Source: a virus
Direction: 5' to 3' (one strand)
Virus record (IMG/VR): IMGVR_UViG_3300021963_000086
Coordinates: 1-64,000 of that record
DNA: 64,000 nt
This document shows positions 1-53,116 of the stretch, piece by piece; position 1 is the first letter of the stretch, and each line of letters opens with the position of its first letter. Position numbers and translations under genes: made by a program. The notes beneath the pieces are model-generated. The model was not told where the DNA came from. It did not search any database and was given only the letters and a program-made list of their open reading frames with translations.

Positions 1-59
1 CCCATAAAGGGTAACTACCTACGCCGGGAATTTCTATTTTTTGAGCCATTATCTACGCA

Positions 60-67
60 TATAAATA
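60..67 (+). promoter_or_regulatory. T4-type late promoter TATAAATA
   Basis: Exact T4 gp55 consensus about 40 nt upstream of a structural gene; a gp55 homolog is in the window. Confidence 0.65.
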
Positions 68-106
68 AACGTGTAGTTCAACACATATATATTTATTGGA
101 GTAAAA

Positions 107-979
107 ATGAACCAAAATAACCAGTTCAACCCACTGGCTCAGTACACACGCAGAACAGCTAGATATGTAAAATTGCCTAGCGGAGGGCAATTTTATACTA
201 AAGGTATCGATTTGGCTGATAACGGAGAACTTGCAGTTTATCCTATGACTGCTAAAGACGAGCTTTTACTTAAGAGTCCCGATGCTTTATTAAACGGCGA
301 AGCTGTAAAAACAGTTTTACGCAACTGTGTTCCCGGCATTGCTGATCCAGGCGAAATTCCTACTATTGACTTAGAACTTATCCTAGTTGCAATCCGCATG
401 TCAACTTATGGTGATAATATGGATATGGAAGTTACTCACCAGTGTAGTCCAGATAAAGAACATACCAGTACTGCATCTGTTAATCTAGGCAACCTATTAG
501 ATTCTGCAACTTATTACAGCGGTGATCCAATGGTAATTCGTATGCCAAATGGATTGCTTGCAGAAATTCGTCCTTATACCATGAGTGACAGAAATAAAGT
601 GTCAATGGCTACATGGGAACAAATGAGTCACATGAATCAAGTCGACAACGACAAAACTGCTGATGCTACTAAGAAACTTAAAGAAGCAAGTGCAGGAGTC
701 AGCAAGTTAATCACTGTAACGTTAGACATTGTATGTAATTCTGTAATTAAAGTAACAACCCCAGACGGTACTGAAGTAACAGATCAACGCTTTATCAAAG
801 ATTGGGTTAATAATCTAGAAAAATCAGAGTTTGACATTATCGATAAAGGTATTAAAAGTCTAATGGATATCGGCATTGCAAAAGAAATGCATCTAAAGTG
901 CGAGAATTGCGGAGAAGACTTTACTACTACTATTAATTTTAACCCTAGCGATTTTTTCGCGCAAGGCTTACCGAGCTAA
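107..979 (+). CDS. Baseplate hub assembly protein / tail assembly chaperone, T4 gp26-like
   Basis: LPSGG-FY start, PMTAKDELLL, DLELILVAIR..TYG, C-terminal CxxC and ...DFF; GGAG RBS. Confidence 0.75.
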   Translation: MNQNNQFNPLAQYTRRTARYVKLPSGGQFYTKGIDLADNGELAVYPMTAKDELLLKSPDALLNGEAVKTVLRNCVPGIADPGEIPTIDLELILVAIRMSTYGDNMDMEVTHQCSPDKEHTSTASVNLGNLLDSATYYSGDPMVIRMPNGLLAEIRPYTMSDRNKVSMATWEQMSHMNQVDNDKTADATKKLKEASAGVSKLITVTLDIVCNSVIKVTTPDGTEVTDQRFIKDWVNNLEKSEFDIIDKGIKSLMDIGIAKEMHLKCENCGEDFTTTINFNPSDFFAQGLPS

Positions 980-1038
980 AAGAACAGCCAGCTGAGCTAG
1001 CCAAATTTGTATCAGGGCTAGAAGAGGACGGGAAAGCC

Positions 1039-1191
1039 ATGAAAACAGACCTCATGACGTTGGCCATAGTATCAAACATGTCGTACGATAGCATTGTTGA
1101 AATGAGTAATGATGAAAGAAATGCTTTAGCAGATGCCCTTAAAGCCAGAGCAGAAGCAGAAGAAAAGGCATATAAATCAGCGAAACGCTAA
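1039..1191 (+). CDS. Small gp51/gpE'-like chaperone segment (50 aa), possibly made as a -1 frameshift extension of 107..979
   Basis: Not in the ORF track; frame open from 952 to TAA at 1189-1191; MSYDSIVEMSNDERNAL resembles gp51/GT-type tails. Confidence 0.55.
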   Translation: MKTDLMTLAIVSNMSYDSIVEMSNDERNALADALKARAEAEEKAYKSAKR

Positions 1192-1696
1192 TCTATTATG
1201 TCGGCTGTGTAAACACAGCCTAATCTTCATGTTACTTCGTAACATTCGATTAATTTTTTATCTATCGAACGAAGATCATATATTTTTAGAATGATTAAGT
1301 ATTATCCTGAGTTCAGTCACACTTAGCCTTAAGCACAAGGCTAAGATGTTTGACATTATCCTTCATCCATATGTCACACTCTAATTAAGCAACTTGTATT
1401 GACCAAGAAAGGGCGGTCACGCTGTACCCTTTTATGCTAGACTTTGACGCAATCACACAACACTATTAGAGCAGTTTGTGTAACCTGTGAGTTGTAATTG
1501 TTCACCAGAGCTCACTCGTTTTAGCTTTACGTATACTAAACCCAGTTCTTTTCAAGCAATTGAACTTCGTCCTGTTAAGGATAGTGGTTTTAGTCTCTGC
1601 TACGGCGCAGAAGTTCCGTCCCTGTGCTCACGCCTGGCCAGGTCTAGGGCGCATAGTAATCAGCCTGCGCTAGCTTATCCGTAGTGTTAGCCTGTA
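1192..1696 (-). ncRNA. Candidate large structured non-coding element (ncRNA or origin); strand inferred
   Basis: 505 nt without a credible gene in a gene-dense genome, with about ten hairpins (e.g. 1203-1220, 1229-1245, 1322-1345, 1408-1432, 1649-1670). Confidence 0.5.
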
Positions 1697-2131
1697 TTAG
1701 CCGTTTAATTTGTCTTTAATATGGGAGCCATGTACTCGAACCTGGATGTGACCGTTGTACCAGTCTGCAGATTCTAAAACCTTATGTGTAAATTGTTCTC
1801 TAGCCTCTATGTATGAGCATTCTGCCTTTGATTTGCAATAGTATAAAATTTCTCGTGTAAAATTTTCTTTGCCTAGGTTTTGTACGTCTTTGTTGAGTTG
1901 ATCGTTTGAGCCATAGTAGTCGCGCCAATCTGAATCAATCTTGGAGCGAATCTTCTTTTTCTTTTTGTTGCCGTTTTTAAGTTTTACTGTTTTGTATGTG
2001 GTTTTTGAGAATTTTGCTAGTTTTTTGCCTATATATTTGCGTCCGTTAGTGTTATTAGTAATAAGATACACGAATCCTATACAATCTTCCGGAAGTGTTT
2101 CTACAGGAATACCTTGAAATAACCATGTCAT
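1697..2131 (-). CDS. Stand-alone GIY-YIG family endonuclease-like protein
   Basis: GFVYLITN...YIGKK motif, YYGS, conserved E..EQ and YN; basic KKKKKIR insert. Confidence 0.8.
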   Translation of the reverse strand: MTWLFQGIPVETLPEDCIGFVYLITNNTNGRKYIGKKLAKFSKTTYKTVKLKNGNKKKKKIRSKIDSDWRDYYGSNDQLNKDVQNLGKENFTREILYYCKSKAECSYIEAREQFTHKVLESADWYNGHIQVRVHGSHIKDKLNG

Positions 2132-2149
2132 ACCCTACTAGTTATCTGT

Positions 2150-2806
2150 TTAGATCTGTCCTATCAGATCTTTGAGATTGGGCCGTGTATAGTAAATGAA
2201 TGTTACTGCGGCACGTTCATAAACACGATTTACTTCTTCTACCGTATTACACTCGTTTATTTCCCTAACCGTTTGTAAACGGGCCATTTCAAGTTTGTAT
2301 AGTGTTGTATCTTCTTCTTCTAATTTGAATTTGATTAATTTGATTGCCTGTTCATGTGTAATTTTGTGTGCCTTAGCGAACCCGTGTACCCATTTGTTAT
2401 CCCAGTCATTATTTTTTTGAATAGTTAAGTAACGATTGAAAGTTTCCTTGTCATCAAAACTTCTTGCCATTGTATAGATAAATTCTAAGCTGTTAATAAA
2501 GTATGCAAGTGCATAGCACTTGGCTTTAATAGTATAAACTTGTTGTCTTTTCTCTTCTGTAACATAATGAAAATCGTCTCTTAACTCTACTTTTTCAGGG
2601 CCAAGGTTATAAACTCTAAAATTGTTAATTTCATTGTACATATTAAAATTTACATAACCTCTGTAAATTTTTAAATTTAATCCTAAATGCGCTACAGGCG
2701 GTACAGTGATATCACTGCTAACGTCAGTAGTGTACCAAATAACCAAGTTAGTATCTTGGAGACAAAGCATTTTACATCTATGATAAAAATGACTAGGTGC
2801 TTTCAT
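2150..2806 (-). CDS. Partner protein of AsnB-like ligase with a C-terminal tail-fibre-chaperone-like helical domain
   Basis: C-terminal EQAIKLIKFK..E.ARL...INECNTVEEV parallels 49703..50323; 4-nt overlap with the upstream ligase gene. Confidence 0.5.
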   Translation of the reverse strand: MKAPSHFYHRCKMLCLQDTNLVIWYTTDVSSDITVPPVAHLGLNLKIYRGYVNFNMYNEINNFRVYNLGPEKVELRDDFHYVTEEKRQQVYTIKAKCYALAYFINSLEFIYTMARSFDDKETFNRYLTIQKNNDWDNKWVHGFAKAHKITHEQAIKLIKFKLEEEDTTLYKLEMARLQTVREINECNTVEEVNRVYERAAVTFIYYTRPNLKDLIGQI

Positions 2807-3873
2807 ATGATTATAAGATCAGTAATATCATCAGTAGATTTAAACTGTCCGTCTTGTTTGTATATAATTGTCTTTTGCATAGTGCGTACAGTATGCTTTT
2901 GGCTGTAGAGCTTTTCCTTGTTCTTAACGTAGGCTTCGTCTTTGGTAAAATCAAAGATATATCTTTTCGGAAAATCTCTAAAGTCGCTGGTACTTTTAAA
3001 AGTAGGATTAGTGCTCATATACTCAAATGAATATGTAGCAAACTCATGATCGTAATAAAATCTAAAGACCTTATGATCATCATTATCAATACCCGTTACA
3101 TCGTAGTCTGACCAAACATAGGGTCTTACTAATTCATCTTGCCCGGCAAAGGCCTGACTAAACCACCAAGCCAGTTGACTAACAGAATTAATTTCAAAAG
3201 GCGCATGTTCTCTTAATCCTTCGATCACAGGTTCCACACATTTGCCTTCTGGATCGATTGCTCTCCAAACTTTTTCTAGTTCTTCTTTAGGTAAGTCAAT
3301 TGACTTACCCCCGTCAGGCCACCATTGATGTAGATCTTGAGTACCTATAATATAGTCTCCGATGTCACCAGTAATCAGCATTAGATTAGGATCATTCATA
3401 TCTCGCTGATGATCCATAGCCATAATGGGAATGTTAGGAAGTATAAATTCGTAGAATAGTTTAGAGTATTCTAAGATGCTACTGCTGGTCATGTTAAGTA
3501 CAAACTGCCCAGCTTCTAGTTTTTCTTTAAATCTAGGATGTTGTGCTAGAGCACATAGAACCTGTACGCTGTCAATACCTCCGCTATAACAAAGACTAAT
3601 AACTCTATCACCTGCTATACGATATATTTTGTCAGCAACAGAATCAGTAATTGCCACATATCTATCATACCAATCATTGGTCAAATTTGATAGATTATAT
3701 GTTACGGGTTTCATAATTACTTCTGCTTTAAGATCTCTTACGTTTTTTAATACGCCAAAACGATCTGCACCGAATTCGTAATGATTCGATATAAGTCTGT
3801 AATTCTTACGCCAACTAGGACTGTTAAATCTTAATGCAGACCAATTGGCCCATACATAGGTACGTTCACTCAT
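2803..3873 (-). CDS. AsnB synthetase-domain-like (PP-loop) ATP-dependent ligase, subtype A
   Basis: YSGGIDS PP-loop plus LITGDIGD (compare AsnB SGEGADE); no glutaminase domain. Confidence 0.7.
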   Translation of the reverse strand: MSERTYVWANWSALRFNSPSWRKNYRLISNHYEFGADRFGVLKNVRDLKAEVIMKPVTYNLSNLTNDWYDRYVAITDSVADKIYRIAGDRVISLCYSGGIDSVQVLCALAQHPRFKEKLEAGQFVLNMTSSSILEYSKLFYEFILPNIPIMAMDHQRDMNDPNLMLITGDIGDYIIGTQDLHQWWPDGGKSIDLPKEELEKVWRAIDPEGKCVEPVIEGLREHAPFEINSVSQLAWWFSQAFAGQDELVRPYVWSDYDVTGIDNDDHKVFRFYYDHEFATYSFEYMSTNPTFKSTSDFRDFPKRYIFDFTKDEAYVKNKEKLYSQKHTVRTMQKTIIYKQDGQFKSTDDITDLIII

Positions 3874-5443
3874 CTGTGTAAATGTTGTCTTTTAAGTATT
3901 GGTATAGGGTCGGTGAATTATTTGCGGCCTCTTGCCATCTTGCTTTTTTAATCTCAAAACTTTCAACTATTCCATTAACGTCAGGTAACTGATTATCTAG
4001 TTTAATGTCTACAGAATCTAATAGCAAGTAATTTAATCCTGTAGAAATCCAGGTTATACCTTGTGTGGGGTCTATGGAATTAATATGCATCTTTGTATCA
4101 GCCAAAGGATAAAAGCCTTGACCAGTATTTGGTTTAAGGTTTTCAATTCCTGGACAATATGTACGATTAGCATTGGCCTTCCAGTACTCTGTATCGTCCC
4201 TTACACTGAGAGCATAATGTTGTGCCACAAATTCTGCAAAGTTCCTAAAGATTGCAAAAGTAGAAGCGTTATAAGCATCTTTTTCCCATTGTGTAATAGC
4301 AGGACGTTGTAAAACTTTTATTAACTTGAATAAGAATTGGTGAACACTAAACAATCCGTTGGATTCTAAAGGTTCAATGAATCCTGCACTTAACCCAATC
4401 GCAACTACGTTTTTAACAAAGGTGCGTTCATGAATACCTACACGCATTTCGATATTTTTGTATTCTAGCGCATCTACTTCTTCTCTAGTTCGAGGATATA
4501 ACATTTTATCACTCATTAGATATTGTTTGAATTGCTCTAGTGCATCAGCATCATTAATAAACTTATCACTATAAACATAGCCTGTACCTAAACGCGACCA
4601 TAATGGAATATTCCAAACCCAGCCATTGTCAATAGCAGTACAGTTTGTAAACGGCTCTAATTCTGTTTCTTTATTTTTATAAGGTAAACGAGTTGCCCAT
4701 GCCTTGTTATTAGGTAGCATATCACTATAACTGATAAATGGTTCATTGAGTGCGTTTAGCAACAAACTCTTAAATCCAGTGCAATCAATAAACAAATCGC
4801 CCTCGACTCTATTCAACGGATTGCTTTCAAGTTGTAAACTTTGTATACCATGTTGTCTTACGTGTACATAAACAACATCATCTTCAATACGTTTAACACC
4901 CCGCGGCAAACAATAACGATCACGCAACCATGCACCAAACTTTGTAGCATCAAAATGATATGCGACATCTCTATTTGGGTTGAAGTTGTCAAATGTCATA
5001 TCTTTGTTAGGATTATATTTGTTGTTTTCAAATAATGCGGCACTAGGGAAATAGCATCGCGCAAAATCTTGTACAGGTGTTTCAGGGTGAACATGTTTCT
5101 TGTAATACCAATCGTAGATTCCTGTCTGCGTCCCGTCTAATAACACCCGGCCAAATGGATAATGGAAGCTACCGGCATTCTTTTCATAAAAATCCGTAAA
5201 CTTGATACTAAGTTTGTAGCTAGCATCAGTAAATTCCATAAAGTCTTTTTCGTCTATTTCTAACCAATTAGTATAGTCTCTAATGCCACCAATAGTACTT
5301 TCGCCTACTCCAATAATAGGAATGTTAGGACTTTCAATTACTGTAATATCTTTGTCAGGAAATGTTTTAATAAGAATAGCGGCTGTCATCCAACCAGCAG
5401 ATCCTCCTCCTACAATTACAATTTTGTTGTTTGGTTTAATCAT
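3866..5443 (-). CDS. Flavin-dependent tryptophan halogenase family protein
   Basis: GGGSAGW FAD motif, GVGEST, ASYKLSIKF (catalytic Lys position), FIDCTGF, WVWNIP, FIEPLES. Confidence 0.9.
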   Translation of the reverse strand: MIKPNNKIVIVGGGSAGWMTAAILIKTFPDKDITVIESPNIPIIGVGESTIGGIRDYTNWLEIDEKDFMEFTDASYKLSIKFTDFYEKNAGSFHYPFGRVLLDGTQTGIYDWYYKKHVHPETPVQDFARCYFPSAALFENNKYNPNKDMTFDNFNPNRDVAYHFDATKFGAWLRDRYCLPRGVKRIEDDVVYVHVRQHGIQSLQLESNPLNRVEGDLFIDCTGFKSLLLNALNEPFISYSDMLPNNKAWATRLPYKNKETELEPFTNCTAIDNGWVWNIPLWSRLGTGYVYSDKFINDADALEQFKQYLMSDKMLYPRTREEVDALEYKNIEMRVGIHERTFVKNVVAIGLSAGFIEPLESNGLFSVHQFLFKLIKVLQRPAITQWEKDAYNASTFAIFRNFAEFVAQHYALSVRDDTEYWKANANRTYCPGIENLKPNTGQGFYPLADTKMHINSIDPTQGITWISTGLNYLLLDSVDIKLDNQLPDVNGIVESFEIKKARWQEAANNSPTLYQYLKDNIYTDE

Positions 5444-6557
5444 CTGTTCTCTCCGGTGTTTGTGTTGCTAATGTTATTTCCACTAGTTTTGTAGACTTTA
5501 ACACTATAGGATCTTTGCCCTCTATTAAATTGATCATTTCTTTGATAGGTAGTATTACTGCTTGTTTGTTATCGTCATTAACACCTGCCGCAGTTTTTAA
5601 TATATCTGTGTAATGCTTCATACGACTCTTAGGTAACTTGTTAATAAAGTTATCACGCATAACATTACCATACAGTTGTTCAAAGCCTGTATACTTGCGA
5701 GTAGGAATCATTTCTGGAAAGTGGCTCAACGCCATTTGCGGTTTAAACAAATAATGGAAACATCGCCACCAAGTGGCAGGATTTGGATGCCATACGCAGA
5801 ATGTGTCATAAATCATATCCTGTGCTCTATAATAGTTTTGCATAACAGGATCAGTTAAGTAGCTGTGGATTAGTTCTGGGCTCCACATATAAAATTTACT
5901 AGTACCCTCAAACCCGCTTTCAATCATGTGCTGTTCAATAGGCAAGGGTTTCATATACCAAGTTGGTGTGGAAAGACCATTAGACATTAAAGGTAATGAT
6001 TGGTTAGGGCAACTTGCAGGATTTACAACTACCATCATAATGTCACCGCCAGCCATGATATAGCAACGGTCTTTACAATGATCCATAGCCGCGGTCTGCA
6101 CAATAGTTTCAGCATTACTCATGCCGTATTTTTTAGCGTACTCTACACCTTTACCAGTATAATGTTTAGGCAAATCTAATACAAGTTCTTCGTAAGGTAC
6201 ATTAAACTTTTTGCAAAACTTATAAGCATTGTCTGTATCGTGACTATTAATAACGTTATTAAATTCGTCTTTATAAGTAACGATTAATGCAGTAAAAGGT
6301 ACTTTGGCTTCTATTAAGCTAAGGCAAACCATTTGACTATCGCTACCACCACTTAGTCCAACTACAATAGGTTTTGTTGTATTATTTGCAATGTCTTTGG
6401 AGGCCTGTACACATTCGTGGCGAAAGCCCAATGACGGGCGACTTAGTGTACCTATAGTAATTTTGTAGGGTTCGTCTGGAACTCGACGACCAAACCATTC
6501 ATCTCCCCAGCCCCATTTGTAATGGTTGTCTTTACTATACTGGAATTTAGGCTCCAT
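5436..6557 (-). CDS. AsnB-like PP-loop ligase, subtype B
   Basis: LSGGSDS; C-terminal RKYTGFE resembles the AsnB R.K.GF motif. Confidence 0.65.
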   Translation of the reverse strand: MEPKFQYSKDNHYKWGWGDEWFGRRVPDEPYKITIGTLSRPSLGFRHECVQASKDIANNTTKPIVVGLSGGSDSQMVCLSLIEAKVPFTALIVTYKDEFNNVINSHDTDNAYKFCKKFNVPYEELVLDLPKHYTGKGVEYAKKYGMSNAETIVQTAAMDHCKDRCYIMAGGDIMMVVVNPASCPNQSLPLMSNGLSTPTWYMKPLPIEQHMIESGFEGTSKFYMWSPELIHSYLTDPVMQNYYRAQDMIYDTFCVWHPNPATWWRCFHYLFKPQMALSHFPEMIPTRKYTGFEQLYGNVMRDNFINKLPKSRMKHYTDILKTAAGVNDDNKQAVILPIKEMINLIEGKDPIVLKSTKLVEITLATQTPERTDD

Positions 6558-7083
6558 GAGACCCCCACCATTGTCTAGATCTAGAGCCTATAGAAAAGAA
6601 AGGATAATCTATATCTAGTTTTAATTTATGCATCAAGTAAGATGTAAATGTATTGCAGTTATTTGTTAACAAGTTAAATTCTGTATTCTTAAAAGGATAC
6701 TCGTCACACGCAGATACAAAATCTTCATAATAAAGTTCTTTGTGCCAAGATCCAGGATTGCTTGCAGTATATACAAGTTTAGGATCAGCACCAAACCATC
6801 TGGCATTAGGATGTCTTATACTAATAAATGGCGCATGATCATAATATGAATCAGTACCATGATAAAGGATAGTTGCTTTTTGTACATCTAACGTTTCTCT
6901 ATCAGTGTATTCGACTGTTATATAATCTTTGTGTTTTTTAGACCATAGAGTAATATACGAATGCTTGCCACCTAAATAACCTTTAAGGTGCCATGCTCGT
7001 GCATTAATATAATGTATGCCGGTAGTACTTAATTCCATCGGCACTAAACTTTGATCACAAATACGCCAATCTTTAAAAATCAT
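6547..7083 (-). CDS. PPPDE / permuted papain-like (NlpC/P60) thiol peptidase
   Basis: His (KHSYI) precedes the FNLLTNNCNTF Cys motif. Confidence 0.7.
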   Translation of the reverse strand: MIFKDWRICDQSLVPMELSTTGIHYINARAWHLKGYLGGKHSYITLWSKKHKDYITVEYTDRETLDVQKATILYHGTDSYYDHAPFISIRHPNARWFGADPKLVYTASNPGSWHKELYYEDFVSACDEYPFKNTEFNLLTNNCNTFTSYLMHKLKLDIDYPFFSIGSRSRQWWGSHGA

Positions 7084-7919
7084 GCAGTTACCTTTTCAAA
7101 TTCCTTATAAGGGCTTGCAGGAGATTGCTCCATAAAGTAATAATTGTCATGTTGACGATCATAGGCTTTGCGCCAATTGGATTTATCAGTCTCCCAATCG
7201 CCAGTTGGTTGAGGATCGTGAATCATGTAATTATAAGTATCAACACCAGAAACCATTACTGTAGATTCTGGTGCTCTATTTAAAATAGGTTTACATTCTG
7301 TACTTGCAAAAATCATACCCATAGCAACACGACTAGTAGATGCTCTATTAGGACCAGATCCATGAATAATATAAGGACTGTGCAATAGTACGCTACCAGC
7401 CGGTACTGTAGTTTTAACACGCTCCTTAGGTAAATCTTCGTCCACAGTTTGGCCGCGCATTAAAAGATTAGTGTCAGTTTTAACATCTTTGTGTCTACGT
7501 TGAAAAACTCTATGACTGCCTTGTACATATTCAAGACTGCCGTGTTCAGGTACAACATCATCGAATGCGAACCATGCGGTAACTGCTAGATGTTTCTTGT
7601 CAAAGTTCCAATAAGTAGCATCTTGGTGGAAACTAACATCCTTGCCATCACCCGGCTTTTTAATCCAAAATAACGTGTCCCAACAATGAATATTCGGCCC
7701 AATAAGTTCAGTTAAGGCTTCTATCAGCTTAGGACTGCGACTAATGCGATCGACAAAAGGAAACAACACATTACTTTTACAACGATAGTCGCTGTTCATT
7801 AGTTTTAGTTGATCTTCGGTATCTAGTGCAATTTCTTTATAAGCTAGTGCTTCTTCTCTTGACATAATTTGAATAGGCCCCACCCATCCATTTTGTTCAA
7901 ATTGTTCTTTTAATGTCAT
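7080..7919 (-). CDS. Phytanoyl-CoA dioxygenase (PhyH) family Fe/2OG oxygenase
   Basis: FHQDATYW, AWFAFDD, GSLEYVQGSH, HGSGPN, R motifs. Confidence 0.9.
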   Translation of the reverse strand: MTLKEQFEQNGWVGPIQIMSREEALAYKEIALDTEDQLKLMNSDYRCKSNVLFPFVDRISRSPKLIEALTELIGPNIHCWDTLFWIKKPGDGKDVSFHQDATYWNFDKKHLAVTAWFAFDDVVPEHGSLEYVQGSHRVFQRRHKDVKTDTNLLMRGQTVDEDLPKERVKTTVPAGSVLLHSPYIIHGSGPNRASTSRVAMGMIFASTECKPILNRAPESTVMVSGVDTYNYMIHDPQPTGDWETDKSNWRKAYDRQHDNYYFMEQSPASPYKEFEKVTA

Positions 7920-8377
7920 GTTATATCCTTTTCAGTTCGATGAAACGTTATTCTTTTTCCTAAAGCAGTTAACGTATCCATCATCTTTTTGTTTTGAGAA
8001 TGCACATCGCTTCTCATTTTTTTACAACCTGCGGCTTTACCTAATGCTTCTAAATGTGTGTGTAAAAATTTATAAATTCCCCGGCCTCTAAACGGTTGTT
8101 CTACAGCGCCAGCATAAATTTGTATTAACTTGATATGTGCATCATCTTTAATTTCAAATGCAATCTCACCTACAACTTGACCATTTATTTCTGCATAAAT
8201 CACCTGTGTTCTATTGGTTGCAAGAAATATAGGTAACGACCAACCCTTGTCCATTAATTCTGCATGGTGTCTCATAAAAGGACTTATTGCCGGAGTGTAA
8301 GCAATTTGAGTAGAATGTTTGATAATTACTTCTGCTCCTTTTTTATCTGTAACGGTTGCTATAATTTTTTCAGTCAA
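7916..8377 (-). CDS. GNAT family acyltransferase
   Basis: FRGRGIY motif A; VHSQN. Confidence 0.8.
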   Translation of the reverse strand: MTEKIIATVTDKKGAEVIIKHSTQIAYTPAISPFMRHHAELMDKGWSLPIFLATNRTQVIYAEINGQVVGEIAFEIKDDAHIKLIQIYAGAVEQPFRGRGIYKFLHTHLEALGKAAGCKKMRSDVHSQNKKMMDTLTALGKRITFHRTEKDIT

Positions 8378-8840
8378 GATGTTTCACCATTCTAATAAAC
8401 TCAGGGACCATACCAACTTTAGCACAACTTTCTTGTCGTACTATGTTATTAACATGTACAATACTACCAATTCTATCACATCCTTCTTCTTTGGCAATTT
8501 TTTCTAACCAAGGATGTAAGGCAGTATATACACCTTTTCCTCTGTGTGTATCTTCTACACAACTTAATAAAATATACAACATTCTTTGTGTTGGGTGAAT
8601 TTCGTATATTATGGCCCCAACAATTGATCCCTTAAGGGTAGCGTAAACAGCACTACTATTATTAGATCCGCTCATAACTTGAAGTGCATGATCATTGTCA
8701 ATAAGTTGAGCCATATGGCGCATATAAAAACTACACACAGGGCTCATAGCAAGAGATTGACAGTCCCATAATTCAAGAACGTTTCCGTCCTTGTCTTTTG
8801 CTTTTGCAATAGCCCGATCTTTAGGAATTATCTTACTCAT
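8370..8840 (-). CDS. GNAT family acyltransferase
   Basis: HRGKGVY motif A; VHVNN. Confidence 0.8.
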   Translation of the reverse strand: MSKIIPKDRAIAKAKDKDGNVLELWDCQSLAMSPVCSFYMRHMAQLIDNDHALQVMSGSNNSSAVYATLKGSIVGAIIYEIHPTQRMLYILLSCVEDTHRGKGVYTALHPWLEKIAKEEGCDRIGSIVHVNNIVRQESCAKVGMVPEFIRMVKHLD

Positions 8841-10615
8841 ACTTCAATCATATCAACATCAAAACCAAATGTTGTAAATCCATTTTCTTTAGTTACTTGT
8901 AGGATAGTATTTACACGGCCCACCAATTCGTCTCTGTGCGAAATCAAAAACACATTTTTCTTTTGTTCACGACCCATTTTCTTAAGTACACCTAAGGCAC
9001 TATCTACTCCGTTTGGATCCATACCGCTATCTACCATTTCATCAATAAACAAAAGATTCAGCGGGCTGTTCAAACTTTCAAAAACATCACGGAATGCCCA
9101 GCTTAAACCTAGGATAAGTCTATTGCGTTCTCCTCTCGATAAATTATCAAAATCAAACTCTTGTCCTAACTGTGTAATGCTTACAGATAAATCACTTTCA
9201 AATCTAACTTCGTGTGGTAAGTTTAGCTCTGTTAGATAGTGTTCTAGTCTGTGATTTAAGTAACTAAGATTCTGCTCAATGATCTTACGACGAATAAAGC
9301 TATCTTTGTTTGTTAACAGTTTGAGCAAAAACTCTTGATGTTCAAGTAGCTTACTTAATTGGTTAACTTTAGTCCAATCAATCTCAACTAATGCACTATT
9401 TTGTAAAACTACAATCTGTTCGTGGTAAGGATCACTTTCTGTGTACCTTGTTTCTAACTGCTGATGTAAATTACTTAACGTAGTCTTATGGTTGATTGCA
9501 TCATCGATACTAATATACTTAACCTTGGGTTGGGTACCCATGGACCCAGTTAGCTCTTGGAGCTTAACTTCTGTTTGCTCTAGAGCAAGTCGGTTTTCTT
9601 CTAACTCAGTACGAACAACACCTATTGCACTTTCGAGTTCTGCAAGCATCTTGTCGTGACTTTGATCGTGCAACTCTTGACCGCAAGCATGACACTTGTG
9701 ATCTTTAGTGGTATTAAGTGCAGTAGTTAAATCAGTCAATTGAGTAGTCAAACGTTTAACTGCTGATTGCTCGGTTGCAAGATCCTTGTTTAGTCTTTTT
9801 AACTGTGATTCTTGTTCTTTCCACACAGTTAACGCCGCATGGTTTGCAAGCTCTTGTTCGATATCAATAGCATCGAGTTCATTGATTGCGGCTGTTAGCT
9901 TTTCAATATCTTCATCTCTCTTGCGTAACCAAACACCTGCTCTGCGTTCTAAATCTTCAATGCTAGTTTTAATTTTAGTATTGCTTTCTTGTTGTGCTTT
10001 GATACGGAACTCTTCTTCCTTGATACTATCCTTTACAGACTTACTTTGCTCTTTAAGCAATTCTGCCTTTTCAGACAGTAATGTAATCCCTAGTAATTGT
10101 TCAATAATAGACCGTTGGTCATTGGCTTTCATTCCTAGAAAAGGTTCTGTAAAGGTGTTCAAGGCCACAATATGTTTGAACATATCATAGCCAATACCTA
10201 ACACTTGCTCTATGTGCTCTTGGGTAAGTCTGTTTTCCCCTTGTCCTTCATCTGTACCGGCGTCATTAACCTCGCTATCGTCGACGATGAATTTAAAGAT
10301 GTTTGGCTTGCGACCTCTTTCAATTCTGTAGTTGTGTCCGTTTTTTTCGAACTCGATAGTAACCAACATACCTTTTGAGTTTGTTTTGTTAACAAGATTA
10401 TCTTTCCTAATGTTAGTAATGGCTTGTCCATACAAACCATAACACAGAGCATTGACCAGTGTGGTCTTACCTGTACCGTTACGACTGCCGTCTCCGCCTA
10501 GGTCCATATTCTTACCCAGAACCAACGTTAGTCCGTGTTCATTAAGTTTGACAGCCTGGGTTACATTACCCACGCTCATAAAGTTTTTGACTGTTATATT
10601 TTTTACAGTTATCAT
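8837..10615 (-). CDS. Recombination endonuclease ATPase subunit, T4 gp46 / SbcC / Rad50-like
   Basis: Walker A NGTGKTT, CHAC zinc hook, LSRGE signature, FIDE Walker B, ISH. Confidence 0.95.
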   Translation of the reverse strand: MITVKNITVKNFMSVGNVTQAVKLNEHGLTLVLGKNMDLGGDGSRNGTGKTTLVNALCYGLYGQAITNIRKDNLVNKTNSKGMLVTIEFEKNGHNYRIERGRKPNIFKFIVDDSEVNDAGTDEGQGENRLTQEHIEQVLGIGYDMFKHIVALNTFTEPFLGMKANDQRSIIEQLLGITLLSEKAELLKEQSKSVKDSIKEEEFRIKAQQESNTKIKTSIEDLERRAGVWLRKRDEDIEKLTAAINELDAIDIEQELANHAALTVWKEQESQLKRLNKDLATEQSAVKRLTTQLTDLTTALNTTKDHKCHACGQELHDQSHDKMLAELESAIGVVRTELEENRLALEQTEVKLQELTGSMGTQPKVKYISIDDAINHKTTLSNLHQQLETRYTESDPYHEQIVVLQNSALVEIDWTKVNQLSKLLEHQEFLLKLLTNKDSFIRRKIIEQNLSYLNHRLEHYLTELNLPHEVRFESDLSVSITQLGQEFDFDNLSRGERNRLILGLSWAFRDVFESLNSPLNLLFIDEMVDSGMDPNGVDSALGVLKKMGREQKKNVFLISHRDELVGRVNTILQVTKENGFTTFGFDVDMIEV

Positions 10616-10623
10616 AGATTACT

Positions 10624-10652
10624 ATATTACGCTAAACTATTGTAAATGTCAA
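10624..10652 (-). promoter_or_regulatory. sigma70-type promoter for gp46 (near-leaderless)
   Basis: TTGACA-17-TAATAT, 8 nt before the ATG at 10615. Confidence 0.5.
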
Positions 10653-11646
10653 CTAGCATCTGCTTGTCTATTACTTCACTATCGATTGCAGTAAGCTGAT
10701 TTAGAACAATAGTATCAACACTTTCAAATTTGATTTCACCGCCGTCCCATTCAGTTGCGTGTTCATCTTTCTTAGACGGTATGAAATTGATTTCTCGTAG
10801 ACTGTAAGTTTCTAAAAAGTTTTCTTTTAAGAAATTTGCTTCTTCATAGCTAATATCTACATCAACAGTAACACGAGCAAATGTGTTACTGTCTAAGTGT
10901 TTATCTGGGTCTTCTATTAGTTGACTTAGGGTAAGAGTGCGAAACTTTGGAGCCCCGGGCCAAGTTTTATATTCTGGTTTCTTACCCCACTCTAACAACA
11001 TCATACCTCGATCGTCATCTCCTGCATCGGCAAAGTTATGTGGGAAAGCGTTTCCGATATAATGTACATTGCCGCTAGATTGTCTTTTATGAAAGTGCCC
11101 GCTGAATACATATTCTTGGTTAGGGAAGTGTTGATGGTTAAGTCCGCCATGGTCCGGCATCTGTACCATAGCATTCATGTAGAAGTTAGGTAATTCAAAG
11201 TGACCAAAAACATATTTGCTTTTAATCTCTTTCATAGCTTTCCATTCTTCTTCTACTAACCAAGGACATAGTGTAACATTTCCTTCAGTCATAATCTCAT
11301 TGACCATAACAATATTGTTAATAGTACGAGTAAACGGAAGACTGTTGATTTCGCGTTTTTCTCTGTAATATAGATCGTGATTGCCTGCAATAAAGTAAAC
11401 AGTCTTAAAATTATTGCTCAATGTTTCTAAGTTACTAACAGTATAGTTTAAGGTACTAACGTTAACTGTTGCACGATGATGGTGCCAATCGCCTAAGAAG
11501 ATGCAGGTTTCGGCACCTTCTGCTTTTGCTGTTTCGCAAAACCAATTAACAAAGTTTTCACAGTCTTGATTATGTGCTCGACTATTTTGTCGCATACCAA
11601 AGTGAATGTCTGTGAAACATGCTACCTTCTTAAACAAATTACTCAT
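10627..11646 (-). CDS. Recombination endonuclease nuclease subunit, T4 gp47 / SbcD / Mre11-like
   Basis: DIHFG, GD, GNHD, GHFE, SGHFH metallophosphoesterase motifs; adjacent to gp46. Confidence 0.95.
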   Translation of the reverse strand: MSNLFKKVACFTDIHFGMRQNSRAHNQDCENFVNWFCETAKAEGAETCIFLGDWHHHRATVNVSTLNYTVSNLETLSNNFKTVYFIAGNHDLYYREKREINSLPFTRTINNIVMVNEIMTEGNVTLCPWLVEEEWKAMKEIKSKYVFGHFELPNFYMNAMVQMPDHGGLNHQHFPNQEYVFSGHFHKRQSSGNVHYIGNAFPHNFADAGDDDRGMMLLEWGKKPEYKTWPGAPKFRTLTLSQLIEDPDKHLDSNTFARVTVDVDISYEEANFLKENFLETYSLREINFIPSKKDEHATEWDGGEIKFESVDTIVLNQLTAIDSEVIDKQMLVDIYNSLA

Positions 11647-11810
11647 ACCAGTTCCTCAACAATGCCTAGCACTTCTGCTAGTATAAGGCAAACGCCTGCC
11701 ATTAGCAAGTTTCCTGTCATCAGCCAGCAACCTGCTCCTATGCGAATAAAACTTTTAGCAAGACTAACATAAAAATGTCCCCGGCTTGTGTCCTTAGGTT
11801 GTACTTCCAT
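11643..11810 (-). CDS. Small hydrophobic membrane protein (55 aa)
   Basis: Not in the ORF track: MEVQPKDTSRGHFYVSLAKSFIRIGAG...LAEVLGIVEELV; fills the gap, ATGA overlap with gp47. Confidence 0.7.
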   Translation of the reverse strand: MEVQPKDTSRGHFYVSLAKSFIRIGAGCWLMTGNLLMAGVCLILAEVLGIVEELV

Positions 11811-12708
11811 CTTCAACTGGCTCCTTTAGTGCATTATTGCGTTCACGTTCTTCGGCCATTGCGGCTTCGTGTTCTAGCTGGCGTGTGTAGCTAGGCATTT
11901 GTCCTGACTCAATTAACAGGTCATCGCGGATAACTTGATTCTTCTTCTCAATGTTAAGAATACGAGTAAAGCTATTAGTGATTGCGGCCGTGTAATAAGC
12001 AAACGGATTTTCTGATTTTGATTCATCAAACTGTAGACCGATTTGACTTAGTTGTAATAATGCTTGTCCGCGCATTTCTTCTACATAAGTGTAACCACGC
12101 CAGTTAGAGCGCATACTGTAACGTTCGCAGAGTTTGATATACATTTCTGCTAGTCGTCTGGTTGTCTTACCGTGGTCTACACAAAATTCTCCGTCATCGG
12201 GTGTACCCTTCCAGTGGCTACGGGCTACTTCCTCCCATTTACCTTTTATTTTAGCATAATGCTTATATGGCGGAAAGTTAATCTTTGCGTGATAATCACT
12301 AATTAACTTAGGTTTGTTTTTACGTCCAGGCTCTTGGGGAATATGATCAAATGTGGTTACGCGAAATACTAGGTCTTCTAGATTAAATGATTCGGGGTCT
12401 GGTTTAAAGTTTATCAGCTTAGGCTTTTCGCCCTTGCTACCCCTAGCTTCCCACTCTTTTACGGCCTGCTCCCAAAGCTCTGCGCCTACACGATCTGAGC
12501 GTGTTTTGCGAGCTTCGGCTAATGGCCCGTTTTCCCATTTAGCTGTCGGTGTGTTTGGTTCGTTGTCTAGCATGTCTAGGTTAGGAACAATAAGGTCGTA
12601 GTAATAATACTGCTGGTCCATACACCATGTGTAAGTCATCTTACTTTTATGGATTTCCTTTAAAATGTCCTTGTTACCTAAATATACTGTTTTTTTAGTT
12701 GTGGTCAT
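11794..12708 (-). CDS. Late transcription sigma factor, T4 gp55-like (enlarged)
   Basis: YLGNKDILKEI N-terminus; NWRGYTYVEEM, FDESKSENPFAYYT, F.R.L..EKK; synteny gp55-gp47-gp46; ATG 12708 preferred over TTG 12744. Confidence 0.88.
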   Translation of the reverse strand: MTTTKKTVYLGNKDILKEIHKSKMTYTWCMDQQYYYYDLIVPNLDMLDNEPNTPTAKWENGPLAEARKTRSDRVGAELWEQAVKEWEARGSKGEKPKLINFKPDPESFNLEDLVFRVTTFDHIPQEPGRKNKPKLISDYHAKINFPPYKHYAKIKGKWEEVARSHWKGTPDDGEFCVDHGKTTRRLAEMYIKLCERYSMRSNWRGYTYVEEMRGQALLQLSQIGLQFDESKSENPFAYYTAAITNSFTRILNIEKKNQVIRDDLLIESGQMPSYTRQLEHEAAMAEERERNNALKEPVEDGSTT

Positions 12709-12806: not shown

Positions 12807-13424
12807 ATGCGTCTCAATGAAATCGAATCTAAGTTTTTAGTAGTTTACCCTGGTCGTTTCCAGCCTTTTCACATAGGGCATCGTAAGGTTTACGACAGTT
12901 TAGTGAAACAATTTCGCTCTAGCCCCGTTTTTATTGCTACTAGTAATAAAGTTGAACTACCAAAAAGCCCATTTAACTTTGAAGAAAAGAAGCAAATGAT
13001 GCTGTCTACAGGTGTACCTAACCAAGCAATCGTGCAATGCAGAGTACCTTATCAACCCGTAGAAATTACTGAAAAATATGATCCTGAAAAAGTAATCCTT
13101 GTGTTTGCAGTAAGCCAAAAAGATATGGAAACTGATCCTCGTTTCAGTTTTAAACCCAAGAAGGACGGATCACCTAGCTATTTACAACCTTTTTCAGGAA
13201 CAGAAGAATACCAGCCATTTGCTAAACACGGATACGTTATTGTATCTGAAACGTTTCCGTTTACCGTAGCAGGTAAGCCAGCAACAGGAGCGACACAAAT
13301 TAGAGAACTATATGCAAACGCAAACGAAGAAACACGCATGAAGATTGTTACAGATTTATACGGCAACTTTAATCAAGACATTTACACGTTGTTCAACGAA
13401 AAACTAGGAGCACAAAATGGCTGA
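12807..13424 (+). CDS. HIGH-superfamily nucleotidyltransferase (cytidyltransferase-like)
   Basis: GRFQPFHIGH, SPFNFEEK, GATQIR. Confidence 0.85.
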   Translation: MRLNEIESKFLVVYPGRFQPFHIGHRKVYDSLVKQFRSSPVFIATSNKVELPKSPFNFEEKKQMMLSTGVPNQAIVQCRVPYQPVEITEKYDPEKVILVFAVSQKDMETDPRFSFKPKKDGSPSYLQPFSGTEEYQPFAKHGYVIVSETFPFTVAGKPATGATQIRELYANANEETRMKIVTDLYGNFNQDIYTLFNEKLGAQNG

Positions 13425-19206: not shown

Positions 19207-19436
19207 TGCATTACTGGTTGTTCAATTCTTTGAACTTTATCTTTCTTTTCTACAATGCCGTCTACTAATTTGTCAAAATCAGAATCAGATAGAACAGTTT
19301 TATAAATGGTCATAGCCTGAGCTAGCATGACTCCTGCTAATACCGTAGGGTCATATTCATTTTTAGAAAGATGGGAAGTTAGTTCCCAGTATAGTTGATA
19401 TGCGTTTTCTAAATTTTTGTCCATATTAGCAACCAT
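19203..19436 (-). CDS. Hypothetical protein
   Basis: ATGA overlap with the next gene; start may be 19424. Confidence 0.6.
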   Translation of the reverse strand: MVANMDKNLENAYQLYWELTSHLSKNEYDPTVLAGVMLAQAMTIYKTVLSDSDFDKLVDGIVEKKDKVQRIEQPVMQ

Positions 19437-20031
19437 TATTGTTCAATGATCGAACTACATCGTCAAACGCAGGATTGTTTGCTAGTCTAATAGCAAATGC
19501 AACTCTGCAATTTTCATTAGTACGATTATCTATAGAATGCCAAAAATCTACTTTAAATGCAGTAGGACCACTGGCATCACACTCGTCGATAATTTCCCAA
19601 TCCTTAGGATCAGCTTGATTAGCTCCTTCAGGGAATCCTGCACGTGGCCCGTTACGATAATCAAAGAAACCTAATTTATATTGATCGGCACGTACCCAAA
19701 CCATTCTACTCCCGTTACATCCTCGTAAAGGTAAGTTAATGGTTGCATGACGAGGATCATGTGCTCTATCAATATGCAATCCGCCCATGACTTTTTCTCG
19801 GCACACAAATATATTGATGTGATCAACACTCAAGCCTGCTGTATACAAGTCTCTAATAATTTCTAGATCCGTACCTAAATCTTCTAGGACTTCCATAGTA
19901 AAAGGATCCCAATAATGGTTTCTTTTTACAGTATCTCTTCGTTCAACCATTGCGTCGATGTCTTTGCTAAATTTAGCATTAATTTTTGCTATATCATCGG
20001 CGTATGATTTTTGTAAATGATAATAGTTCAT
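19426..20031 (-). CDS. Cupin / Fe-2OG oxygenase-like protein
   Basis: LHID ... WHSIDN ... RVAFAIR facial-triad pattern. Confidence 0.6.
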   Translation of the reverse strand: MNYYHLQKSYADDIAKINAKFSKDIDAMVERRDTVKRNHYWDPFTMEVLEDLGTDLEIIRDLYTAGLSVDHINIFVCREKVMGGLHIDRAHDPRHATINLPLRGCNGSRMVWVRADQYKLGFFDYRNGPRAGFPEGANQADPKDWEIIDECDASGPTAFKVDFWHSIDNRTNENCRVAFAIRLANNPAFDDVVRSLNNNGC

Positions 20032-20483
20032 TACCCACCCCTTGGTAGCTCTTTATATGCTTTGTAGTAAAGCAGTTCCCTACCTGTTTCTTTTACGTTT
20101 TTAATGGCTACATCATTATTTACATGTACAAGGCTGGAGATTGATTTCTTCCCTCGTTCAACTTGAATACTTTCAAATAATACATACATGGCTTTGTGCA
20201 AGCCCCTGCCTCTGTAACTAGGTACAACAGAAGTCAATGTAATCCATACTGTTTCGGCATCCCCGTCTTGATAACAAAGGTACCCTACACATTTATTTGA
20301 TTCAGGATCTATAACGGCAACTACTTTAGATGTGCTCTGCCAGCCCTGAATAGGTTGGGCCCAACCTTTATCTACCATTTCTGCCCATGCAATAAGATGC
20401 ATACTATAGCACGGACTGTTATCTAACGGACCATGATATATTTTGTAATCTCTATTAAACTTGTCTTTGAGTCTGTATTTCAT
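20031..20483 (-). CDS. GNAT family acyltransferase
   Basis: YRGRGLH; VHVNN; AEMVDKGW shared with 7916..8377. Confidence 0.8.
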   Translation of the reverse strand: MKYRLKDKFNRDYKIYHGPLDNSPCYSMHLIAWAEMVDKGWAQPIQGWQSTSKVVAVIDPESNKCVGYLCYQDGDAETVWITLTSVVPSYRGRGLHKAMYVLFESIQVERGKKSISSLVHVNNDVAIKNVKETGRELLYYKAYKELPRGG

Positions 20484-47075: not shown

Positions 47076-47829
47076 CGCATATCATCTCAGTTGGCTAGCT
47101 GAAGAACTACATAAAGCTAAGTTTATTGATGTAAGTAATAGACAGTTCTATAATTGGTATAACAGTATAAACGATGGCAATCATGATAAACCTCAACCAG
47201 AAGTTTATCTATTTGCGGCCTTTGACGAGCTAATGACTATTTGTCCAAATAACCTATTCGGAAGAGTAATTAGTTTAGTAGAAGATTATCCTACAGTAAA
47301 TTGGGTAGATGCTTTTAGTAGGTTTCAAATACGTAGTAAAATAACAGCGGCCAATACGTTGTTGGCAACAGAAGCAGAGTTTGGCGACATTTGGATAATG
47401 GGGGGTTGGGTAGGAGTGTTACCTATGCTACTAACCGAAAAGTTATATCCTAATAGGTACAATACTATCGTAAGCTACGACCTAGACAATATCGCTAATC
47501 TAGCAGGCGAAAAACTAGTAAATTCTACTCGATACAGCGCAGAATTCAAGGATATCTATGCCTTAGACTATACAAACTTTTCAGGTACTGTCGTGAATAC
47601 TATCTGCGAACATTTAGACAGGTTTGATATTTGGCAAAACCAAATCCCTTCAAACACACTAATGTTACTCCAAAGCAACAACATGTTTGGAGTAGTTGAT
47701 GATCATGTTAATTGTGTGAGCAATATGGACGACTTTGTTAGTCGTTTGGATTGTAAAGAAATTATACATAAAGAAACAAGCACCTATAACGATCAATACG
47801 AACGCTATACGGTGCTTGCTATTAAGTAA
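47062..47829 (+). CDS. SAM-dependent methyltransferase-like protein
   Basis: IMGGWVG motif I, SYDLD, VNTICEH, LQSNN. Confidence 0.6.
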   Translation: MKKFNAYHLSWLAEELHKAKFIDVSNRQFYNWYNSINDGNHDKPQPEVYLFAAFDELMTICPNNLFGRVISLVEDYPTVNWVDAFSRFQIRSKITAANTLLATEAEFGDIWIMGGWVGVLPMLLTEKLYPNRYNTIVSYDLDNIANLAGEKLVNSTRYSAEFKDIYALDYTNFSGTVVNTICEHLDRFDIWQNQIPSNTLMLLQSNNMFGVVDDHVNCVSNMDDFVSRLDCKEIIHKETSTYNDQYERYTVLAIK

Positions 47830-52646: not shown

Positions 52647-52657
52647 TATGTAGGTAT

Positions 52658-53116
52658 TTATTTCAGCTTCATACTGGCATAACAATTAGGACCAAACTCC
52701 ATGTCCTTGTCAAACCAATCTGATGTTTGTATAAATCCTACACTTTGATAAGCTGGCAAGGCAGATTGCCTTGGTACTGTCCATATATGGCTAGCATTCC
52801 AATCCTTTGCTTGAAAGATAGAATTTTCTAGCACGATTCTTGCATAACCTTTATTACGGTATAATGGATCTACCCATAGGCCTCGACTTCTAGCAGAACC
52901 ATCTGCACACATAACAACGCTATTAATTGCAACTATATCATTGTTATTACGTATAGAAAAGAAAGCAGGTACGAACTGCTGGTTTTGCATATCGTACCCG
53001 CCAAGATAACGCATTGCACTAGTAGGTTCAATCTTTGACTTGCGTCCTGGCCAAAGTTTGTCTTGCCATACACGGAATGTTTCTTCCCATGTAGCAGGTC
53101 CTACTAGTAAGTTCAT
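52658..53116 (-). CDS. GNAT family acyltransferase
   Basis: RGLWVDPLYRNKGYA; A...YQSVGF. Confidence 0.85.
   Translation of the reverse strand: MNLLVGPATWEETFRVWQDKLWPGRKSKIEPTSAMRYLGGYDMQNQQFVPAFFSIRNNNDIVAINSVVMCADGSARSRGLWVDPLYRNKGYARIVLENSIFQAKDWNASHIWTVPRQSALPAYQSVGFIQTSDWFDKDMEFGPNCYASMKLK

Follow-up and report, generated by a model that had tools for sequence, protein, structure and literature searches.

Which pathway, if any, is encoded by a tightly packed row of acyltransferase, dioxygenase, thiol enzyme, halogenase and ligase genes that lies directly behind the recombination genes of a virus? The question is raised by a stretch of 64,000 nucleotides from the IMG/VR virus record IMGVR_UViG_3300021963_000086 (positions 1 to 64,000; the whole stretch is referred to as the window), in which eight minus-strand open reading frames (ORFs), termed operon A, fill positions 2150-8840. 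The genes of operon A are real, intact and co-inherited. With a confidence a little short of even, we propose that they constitute a phage-specific amide-forming module, placed in the variable slot that follows gp47/gp46 in an uncultured T4-like jumbo phage, with a substrate that would be acylated and amino-acid-like, or carrier-bound. The members of the operon and their immediate neighbours are listed below, with the basis of the assignment in brackets.

8370-8840, minus strand: A1, GNAT acyltransferase, 156 residues (Pfam Acetyltransf_1)
7916-8377, minus strand: A2, second GNAT, 153 residues, TTG start (Pfam GNAT)
7080-7919, minus strand: A3, PhyH-family Fe(II)/2-oxoglutarate dioxygenase, 279 residues (Pfam PhyH)
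6547-7083, minus strand: A4, DUF3750/PPPDE-like papain-fold thiol enzyme, 178 residues (Pfam DUF3750)
5436-6557, minus strand: A5 or PPb, PP-loop ATP pyrophosphatase, 373 residues (SGGSDS motif)
3866-5443, minus strand: A6, VirX1-type flavin-dependent halogenase, 525 residues (Pfam Trp_halogenase)
2803-3873, minus strand: A7 or PPa, glutaminase-less AsnB-class amide synthetase-like enzyme, 356 residues (motifs and predicted fold)
2150-2806, minus strand: A8, the PPa partner, 218 residues (adjacency to PPa, complex model)
8837-10615, minus strand: gp46-like SbcC/Rad50 recombination nuclease subunit (Pfam AAA_23, 5.4e-10, and SMC_N)
10627-11646: gp47-like Mre11 phosphoesterase, upstream of the gp46-like gene
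1697-2131, minus strand: SegE-like GIY-YIG homing endonuclease (Pfam SegE_GIY-YIG, 1.4e-34)

Operon A is gapless: neighbouring ORFs overlap by 4-11 nucleotides, and the start of A1 overlaps the stop of the gp46-like gene, which forms the upstream anchor, by 4 nucleotides. An earlier note on this DNA, made from the sequence alone, had described eight overlapping genes behind gp46, seven of them with enzyme motifs; the overlaps bear out the former description, and Pfam matches, catalytic motifs and the predicted fold of A7 the latter. The SegE-like gene is the downstream boundary of the operon and stands outside the pathway. A scan for promoters and terminators gave no signal above chance, so that the operon boundaries are drawn from gene overlaps only; a repeat scan of positions 1-12000 gave nothing above chance. 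Judged by their sequences, the ORFs are genes and not chance ORFs, because each has homologues in viral contigs and because their order is kept in five relatives.

In these syntenic relatives (contigs L003, L004, L006, L007 and L009), the order is gp47-gp46-GNAT-PhyH-PPPDE-PPb-PPa-partner-segE, with one GNAT gene each. The expectation of the earlier note that the genes co-occur in relatives thus proved right for six of the eight gene families, which stand in the same order behind gp46 in five viral contigs; nor are the catalytic residues degenerate, being invariant wherever homologues exist. The level of divergence differs markedly between genes. Identity between the window and the relatives amounts to 62-75% for gp46, 81-88% for segE and 75-96% for PhyH, and to 40-45% for GNAT, 46-58% for PPPDE, 42-45% for PPb, 40-46% for PPa and 24-26% for the partner. 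Among the relatives themselves, the partner shows 34-79% identity where gp46 shows 70-100%. On these identities, the partner is the fastest-evolving gene of operon A, and its 24-26% as against 75% for gp46 is what a subunit that governs specificity or interaction with the host would be expected to show. The mosaic position of PhyH suggests either recombination within the operon or very different constraints on its genes. Furthermore, exchange of this hyper-divergent cassette might be favoured by the conserved homing endonuclease gene at its side.

The amide-forming activity is ascribed to PPa (A7). The protein contains the motifs SGGIDS (residues 97-102), which is invariant in 26 family members, and TGDIGD (residues 168-173). 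Its AlphaFold model, built with 26 relatives, has a predicted local distance difference test score (pLDDT) of 90.9 and resembles TsnB9 (Z 13.0), human asparagine synthetase ASNS (12.8), beta-lactam synthetase (12.5), the carbapenam synthetase CarA (10.3) and AsnB (9.9), with 195-255 residues aligned to members of the AsnB class at a sequence identity of 7-12%. Generic PP-loop enzymes score about 7-8, other PP-loop classes (FAD synthase, GMP synthase, NadE, TilS, LarE) reach a Z of at most 8.7, and values for TilS, QueC, MnmA-type enzymes and TtuA lie between 4.6 and 7.1; the top ranks of a Foldseek search are AsnB-class families too. According to this model, A7 carries the synthetase-domain fold of the AsnB class. 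The fold match begins near residue 50, and no N-terminal nucleophile (Ntn) glutaminase domain, active or degenerate, was found in A7. The protein is not assigned to any Pfam family and does not reach Asn_synthase (PF00733), for which just two of the 26 PPa family members reach even E 0.045.

A profile of PPa recovers 1,440 representative clusters (50% identity level) among 1.8 billion proteins. A word search for fused or longer forms yielded none, and the longer representatives from the profile search were without a Pfam domain and without a partner domain. The Atlas clusters nearest to PPa are about 94% viral, and no cellular PPa was found in GTDB genomes, where a single search pattern was used and the evidence is accordingly weak. 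Going by these sequences, the PPa family appears essentially confined to viral contigs. A7 has a paralog, B6 (48633-49706), in a second operon of the window (operon B, described below). Among cultured phages, B6 matches Pseudomonas phage Cygsa01 alone. The locus in this phage (L083; PP179332.1, 11421-13570) contains two PPa-like genes, both annotated as 'tRNA-specific 2-thiouridylase MnmA', which follow baseplate and large hypothetical genes and precede a tRNA gene. The MnmA label is probably wrong, and Cygsa01 could serve as an experimental model for PPa.

The neighbourhood of PPa was analyzed by clustering the ORFs of 82 loci, namely the window, the Cygsa01 locus and 80 IMG/VR loci obtained by a pattern scan with the A7 family. 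In this dataset, PPa is associated most strongly with the partner family: a same-strand partner directly adjoins 71 of 96 PPa genes. The partner lies upstream of PPa in 54 cases and downstream, as in operon A, in 18. Members of this family have about 210 residues and fall into three sequence clusters, which are homologous according to hhalign (95-98%) and include A8 as well as its paralog B5 (49703-50323). In the model of A8 (pLDDT 84.9), a beta domain at the N-terminus precedes a domain of long helices; no informative match was obtained by Foldseek, a wider structure search, a profile search of the PDB or Pfam. A similarity of A8 to Acb2/Tad1 was considered and dismissed as chance, the lone hairpin match (E 0.0028) being absent from 58 other family members. 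The idea that the partner is a tail-fibre chaperone had a Foldseek row at E 1.9 as its sole basis and was dropped for want of a significant fold or Pfam match.

A model of the A7-A8 complex reached an ipSAE (interaction prediction score from aligned errors) of 0.79, compared with 0.01 for the best control. Among solved complexes, 58 of 80 attain the mark applied to this score; among mismatched pairs, 2 of 110 do so. Contact agreement between runs was at least 73%, and the pLDDT of the partner was at least 78. The predicted interface places residues 129-154 and 327-335 of A7 against the partner helices 147-203, and the C-terminal tail of the partner (208-218) points away from it. Binding of A8 to PPa is supported by this modelling, and the pairing of ligase and partner put forward in the earlier note agrees with both the complex and the gene neighbourhoods.

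A second PP-loop enzyme, PPb, is encoded by A5, which has SGGSDS at residues 69-74. The 'ligase' calls made for A5 and A7 from sequence alone are consistent with the presence of SGGxDS in both proteins and, for A7, with TGDIGD and the modelled AsnB-type fold. A5 and A7 are nevertheless separate families whose common part is limited to the PP-loop region. For A5, Pfam gives only weak hits (tRNA_Me_trans, NAD_synthase and PP-loop families), and a profile search against the PDB finds solely the PP-loop region, approximately the first 70 residues, of NcsA and NadE (1.6e-7) and of MnmA. All of its 86 metagenomic homologues are unnamed, the nearest Atlas clusters are 93-100% viral, and a tblastn search of cultured phages with A5 produced no match. 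PPb is therefore, to judge from these searches, a virus-only family. It has a single invariant cysteine, and within the window it is paralogous to B2 (51708-52685) and B7 (47822-48640).

Four further genes of operon A encode putative tailoring enzymes. The two GNATs are recognized by Pfam with E-values of 5.6e-9 (A1, Acetyltransf_1) and 2.1e-9 (A2); A1 has an RGKG motif of the acyl-CoA type, and R-G-x-G is present in both. A2 is 31% identical to A1 (E 8e-25), and A1 is 40-45% identical to the lone GNAT of the relatives. Because the relatives hold a single GNAT, A2 is a diverged duplicate of A1 specific to this lineage. A third GNAT of the window (20031-20483, minus strand) falls into the sequence cluster of A1 and A2; it overlaps a gene for 201 residues (19426-20031) that has neither an assigned family nor similarity to the partner family. 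A3 matches PhyH (PF05721) at 8.6e-24, with 85.4 bits as against a cut-off of 22, and its facial triad (H98-x-D100, H186) and 2-oxoglutarate-binding R197 are invariant in seven homologues. As the motif is HxD and not HxA/G, A3 is predicted to be of the hydroxylase type and not a SyrB2-type halogenase. A4 exceeds the cut-off for DUF3750 (28.1 bits; cut-off 25) and remains under that for PPPDE/Peptidase_C97 (PF05903; 21.9 bits; cut-off 29.2). Its dyad, H41 in GKHS (motif GxHS) and C143 in NCNTF, is invariant in five homologues.

The halogenase A6 calls for separate treatment. Its membership of the flavin-dependent halogenases is clear from Trp_halogenase (PF04820; 1.8e-102, 344 bits, cut-off 21) and from the motifs GxGxxG at residue 12, YK(L)SI with its lysine at 77, and WxWxIP at 275; the lysine motif aligns with that of VirX1. 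In the window A6 separates PPb from PPa, whereas in the relatives these two genes overlap directly. The operon slot of the five syntenic relatives contains no halogenase, and the Pfam halogenase model finds no match in the whole records of five contigs with an A-type PPa-partner pair, two of which are syntenic relatives of 231 and 184 kb. Conversely, none of the other operon A genes occurs within 6 kb of 70 IMG/VR halogenase loci, which were collected as relatives of A6 at 39-67% identity; the survey leaves out the contigs of the closest homologues P0002 and P0037 (83% and 85% identity). Many of the 70 loci adjoin gp47/gp46 or hold two to three halogenase paralogues; in L087, L088, L091 and others, two or three divergent flavin halogenase paralogues lie side by side. 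A halogenase beside gp47/gp46 is also present in Synechococcus phage S-B64. Since A6 is absent from the relatives and none of the 70 halogenase loci holds other operon genes, A6 is, on comparative grounds, an independent, lineage-specific insertion between PPb and PPa and not a conserved step of the pathway. It is a mobile accessory gene of phages that entered an operon of six families already in place. The earlier note had likened the locus as a whole to a biosynthetic gene cluster; what remains of this proposal is a coherent, undescribed enzyme module, from which the halogenase has to be removed.

The families of operon A recur in a second set of genes in the window:

47822-53116, minus strand: operon B, with GNAT, PPb, B3 domain, Delta9-type desaturase, partner, PPa and PPb genes (Pfam, paralogy)

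That this region reuses the same parts had been stated before, and it is confirmed by the paralogy of A5 and B2 (3e-23), A7 and B6 (1e-4), and A8 and B5 (2e-5). B3 (51092-51715) is homologous to the N-terminal half of proteins of 389 residues with a C-terminal GNAT domain, as well as to a family of about 214 residues which elsewhere stands between PPb and the desaturase (hhalign 97.6%). A desaturase-type module like operon B is found in approximately 20 viral loci. Neighbours of the PPa-partner pair include PPb (24 loci), the desaturase (20 loci), a cupin whose gene comes right after PPa (29 loci) and radical S-adenosylmethionine (SAM) enzymes (14 loci), as well as an FA_hydroxylase family, an Asp/Asn (LpxO-type) beta-hydroxylase family and GNATs.

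The most complete version of the module observed is the operon of 11 overlapping genes in L062:3010-10849, which reads acyl carrier protein (ACP), PPb, B3-like, desaturase, unknown, Asp/Asn hydroxylase, radical SAM/SPASM, unknown, GNAT, partner and PPa. In this operon the ACP gene overlaps the start of PPb, and the radical SAM enzyme has an N-terminal SPASM match. An ACP (PF00550) is present in four of the 34 records searched, and that of L076 lies within about 2 kb of PPa. In L016:2200-13500, a desaturase-type and a PhyH/PPPDE-type module are arranged back to back and comprise four PPb-type and two PPa genes. Operon A shares with the desaturase-type modules the PPa, partner, PPb and GNAT families, the tight operon structure and the tailoring by an iron oxygenase. 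It differs in that a soluble PhyH enzyme and DUF3750/PPPDE replace the membrane desaturase and the B3 domain, in that the partner lies downstream and not upstream of PPa, and in that the GNAT has been duplicated and a halogenase acquired. The general design combines one or two adenylating enzymes and their partner with a GNAT and with an oxidising enzyme, dependent on iron or radicals, that can be exchanged; operon A is the soluble PhyH/PPPDE version of this design.

As to the virus itself, the source record is a viral contig of 79 kb with a CheckV completeness of 22%, for which reason the virus is probably a jumbo phage of about 360 kb. Among cultured phages, its gp46 is closest to that of the jumbo phages Phosso and PA5oct (49%); the best relatives of gp46 infect Sinorhizobium, Pseudomonas and Agrobacterium, and cyanophages are less close. 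Nearby baseplate, gp5-lysozyme and DNA ligase genes confirm a T4-like architecture. A megablast search of cultured phages with operon A and two scans of metagenome contigs gave no matches. A cytidylyltransferase-like (nucleotidyltransferase) gene at 12807-13424 on the plus strand is divergent from the transcription unit of gp47, and its product is possibly an accessory enzyme of the nicotinamide/nicotinic acid mononucleotide (NMN/NaMN) adenylyltransferase type. The exact T4-type late promoter box TATAAATA occurs once in the 64 kb (positions 60-67, plus strand), 40 nucleotides ahead of a T4_baseplate-family gene (107-979); the chance expectation is 8.8 per 64 kb, and each of 100 shuffles had at least one occurrence. 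Thus, the T4-type late promoter appears to be used in the window and its box to be avoided elsewhere. Operon A contains no exact TATAAATA box, from which follows the weak argument that it is expressed early or in the middle of infection, probably together with the recombination genes and inside the infected cell.

How could these enzymes work together? From the chemistry of its class, PPa would use ATP to adenylate a carboxylate, and attack by an amine or by ammonia would then give the amide. The partner stands where cellular relatives have the glutaminase domain and probably presents or selects the substrate or the nucleophile; an accessory or specificity role is suggested because PPa has no glutaminase domain and because of the modelled complex. 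PPb would be a second adenylating enzyme, unrelated to PPa beyond the PP-loop. The GNATs would cap an amine with an acyl group, PhyH would hydroxylate, and the DUF3750/PPPDE thiol enzyme may transfer or remove an acyl or amide group. The halogenase A6 may or may not act on the same substrate. The least certain step concerns the substrate, which is most likely N-acylated and amino-acid-like, possibly carrier-bound or lipid-like. An acyl-type substrate is suggested because the set of PPa, partner, PPb and GNAT is elsewhere in operons with ACP, Delta9 desaturase, fatty-acid hydroxylase and LpxO-type hydroxylases.

Several observations weigh against the proposed acyl-amide module. Similarity of fold does not give substrate specificity. 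ACP adjoins the module in just two of the 34 records, and none is found in the 79-kb record of this virus, which is 22% complete. Neighbours of the SPASM radical-SAM and Asp/Asn-hydroxylase types would suit a peptide substrate just as well as a lipid. PhyH, at 75-96% identity between flanks of 24-58%, is not bound to evolve together with the ligases and could have a function apart from theirs. Finally, L005, L010, L015 and L019 contain a minimal PPa-partner pair without the other operon genes.

A protein or ribosomal peptide as the substrate is a serious rival to the acyl-type substrate, although we give it a rather low probability. In that event, the product of PPa would be an isopeptide, a macrolactam or a C-terminal amide, following the logic of lasso cyclases or thiopeptide amidases, the thiol peptidase would trim or deconjugate, and the decoration of residues would fall to GNAT, hydroxylase, radical-SAM enzyme and halogenase. 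As for the partner, it would be a recognition or scaffold subunit or itself the substrate, as has been proposed for QatB with the QueC-like QatC. AsnB-class enzymes include members that act on peptides. The intact papain-fold thiol peptidase motifs of A4 are in keeping with such a role, as are the Asp/Asn beta-hydroxylase family, SPASM radical-SAM enzymes and small tandem ORFs (cluster c54) of other loci, and the fast evolution of the partner (24-26% as against 75% for gp46) would fit protein recognition. A PP-loop enzyme that has a protein as its partner or substrate is, moreover, already on record (PMC13376578). Yet the fully overlapping operon A has neither room for a precursor ORF nor a small ORF inside it, the tail of the partner (208-218) is off the interface and binding is modelled through helices, no late promoter suggests virion maturation, and the neighbouring ACP, desaturase and FA-hydroxylase genes speak for acyl chemistry.

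Two other alternatives dispense with a small-molecule or peptide pathway. There is a small probability that no single pathway exists and that a hypervariable island behind gp46 gathers unrelated accessory genes, their packing reflecting genome economy. This would account for the halogenase, which is an independent insertion of a kind often seen beside gp46/gp47 in other phages, and may account for PhyH, whose level of divergence is unlike that of its neighbours; it is also compatible with PPa-partner pairs that lack the other genes in several contigs and with operon boundaries that depend on overlaps alone. It does not explain, however, why the families occur together again and again in varying order: the order of six genes is kept although these proteins differ by 25-60% between the relatives, and PPa, partner, PPb, GNAT and an iron oxygenase recur together, differently ordered, in operon B and in distant contigs. 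We regard as improbable, and as disfavoured by the data, a role in nucleic-acid modification, in which a QueC/TilS/MnmA-like enzyme would amidate a base (7-carboxy-7-deazaguanine or a tRNA base) and the GNAT would be Mom-like. A5, B2 and B7 have weak QueC, MnmA and TilS hits, the PPa homologues of Cygsa01 are annotated as mnmA and lie near a tRNA gene, and FolE (GTP cyclohydrolase I) is present in the records of three close relatives with an A-type PPa-partner pair, G001, G002 and G003 (L003, L007 and L012). Nonetheless, the model of PPa fits the AsnB class (Z 13) better than it does TilS, QueC, MnmA-type enzymes and TtuA. The weak hits span only the PP-loop of about 70 residues; for QueC (PF06508), the scores of 15.5 bits for A5, 12.9 for B2 and a borderline 21.7-22.1 for B7 cover only model positions 2-70 of 210. 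The single invariant cysteine of PPb makes an Fe-S thiolase unlikely, and the window has no tRNA genes. The transglycosylases TGT/DpdA were not found in the record of this virus or in five PPa-bearing records, a suggestive result given that these are mostly fragments; the three FolE-containing records show none in 125-231 kb of sequence, and the one complete genome among the five records, of 165 kb, lacks FolE as well. Of the targets named in the earlier note, virion protein, peptide or acyl-amide and nucleic acid, only the last is thus set back, by the fold of PPa and the missing TGT/DpdA; the others are not decisively separated.

Returning to the acyl-amide module, a bolder version of it can be proposed, which we consider rather unlikely. 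PPa and its partner would be a new, virus-only, two-subunit amide synthetase, in which the hypervariable partner takes the place of the glutaminase domain and determines the nucleophile or macromolecular target. Combined in giant-phage cassettes with interchangeable iron oxygenases, GNATs and here a halogenase, it would yield a family of hitherto unseen acyl-amide compounds or, during infection, tagged components of the host envelope or defence. The superfamilies to which the enzymes belong are known; the chance that the two-subunit enzyme and its products represent something really new deserves to be taken seriously. The PPa, PPb and partner families and their operons are absent from Pfam, from the function labels of PHROGs and from the literature searched, in which no phage system of AsnB-like enzyme, GNAT and desaturase is described. 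If the two-subunit synthetase exists, it would represent a phage-borne 'natural product' pathway with lineage-specific tailoring and possibly halogenation. If, more generally, such operons make or remodel a metabolite, a lipid or a protein mark, uncultured jumbo phages would contain a large unexplored field of phage-encoded chemistry, of which the window shows the soluble PhyH/PPPDE version together with a VirX1-type halogenase spliced into such an operon.

Among known systems, QatC-QatB of the QatABCD defence system and Cap9-type systems of the cyclic-oligonucleotide-based antiphage signalling system (CBASS) provide a likeness in architecture, in that a PP-loop ATP pyrophosphatase and a small protein without recognisable motifs make up a heterodimer (PMC13376578). 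PPa differs in belonging by its model to the AsnB class and not to the QueC class (Z 4.6 for QueC and 4.8 for Cap9). Moreover, in contrast to QatC-QatB, the PPa system is encoded by phages and is not a host defence, and its modelled interface consists of partner helices and not of a terminus in the active site. With the AsnB class (AsnB, ASNS, beta-lactam synthetase, carbapenam synthetase and the hydroxyamidotransferase TsnB9), PPa has SGGxDS and TGDxGD in common, and the chemistry to be expected from the modelled fold is adenylation of a carboxylate followed by amide formation. Unlike these enzymes, PPa is without an Ntn glutaminase and is encoded beside an obligate-looking, virus-only partner.

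In terms of logic, two types of pathway to capped amino-acid solutes are comparable. The pathway to N-acetylglutaminylglutamine amide (NAGGN) combines a GNAT with the AsnB-like amidotransferase AsnO, and that to ectoine includes the GNAT EctA, the cupin EctC and the PhyH-family hydroxylase EctD. The phage modules contain the same mix of classes (GNAT, AsnB-like amidotransferase, PhyH hydroxylase and cupin), which is an analogy of logic only, and they differ in having no ATP-grasp enzyme and no EctB. Echoes in NCBIfam and Pfam are weak and far below the cut-offs: A3 gives EctD at 6e-6, B6 gives the NAGGN amidotransferase at 0.022, and a PPa-adjacent cupin elsewhere gives Ectoine_synth at 0.0017.

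The closest counterpart of A6 is VirX1 of cyanophage Syn10 (PDB 6QGM), to which it aligns over the full length (E 6e-99) with 38% identity by tblastn. Both are phage-borne, share GxGxxG, WxWxIP and the catalytic-lysine motif, and belong to a type that is adjacent to gp46/gp47 in several phages. VirX1 has a broad substrate scope in vitro (PMC8407142). In contrast to Syn10, the phage with A6 is not a cyanophage; its gp46 is nearest to that of Sinorhizobium and Pseudomonas jumbo phages (49%). Furthermore, A6 is flanked on both sides by amide-ligase genes, which is the case at none of the 70 other halogenase loci, and this placement offers a concrete candidate context in which to find the natural substrate of a VirX1-type viral halogenase.

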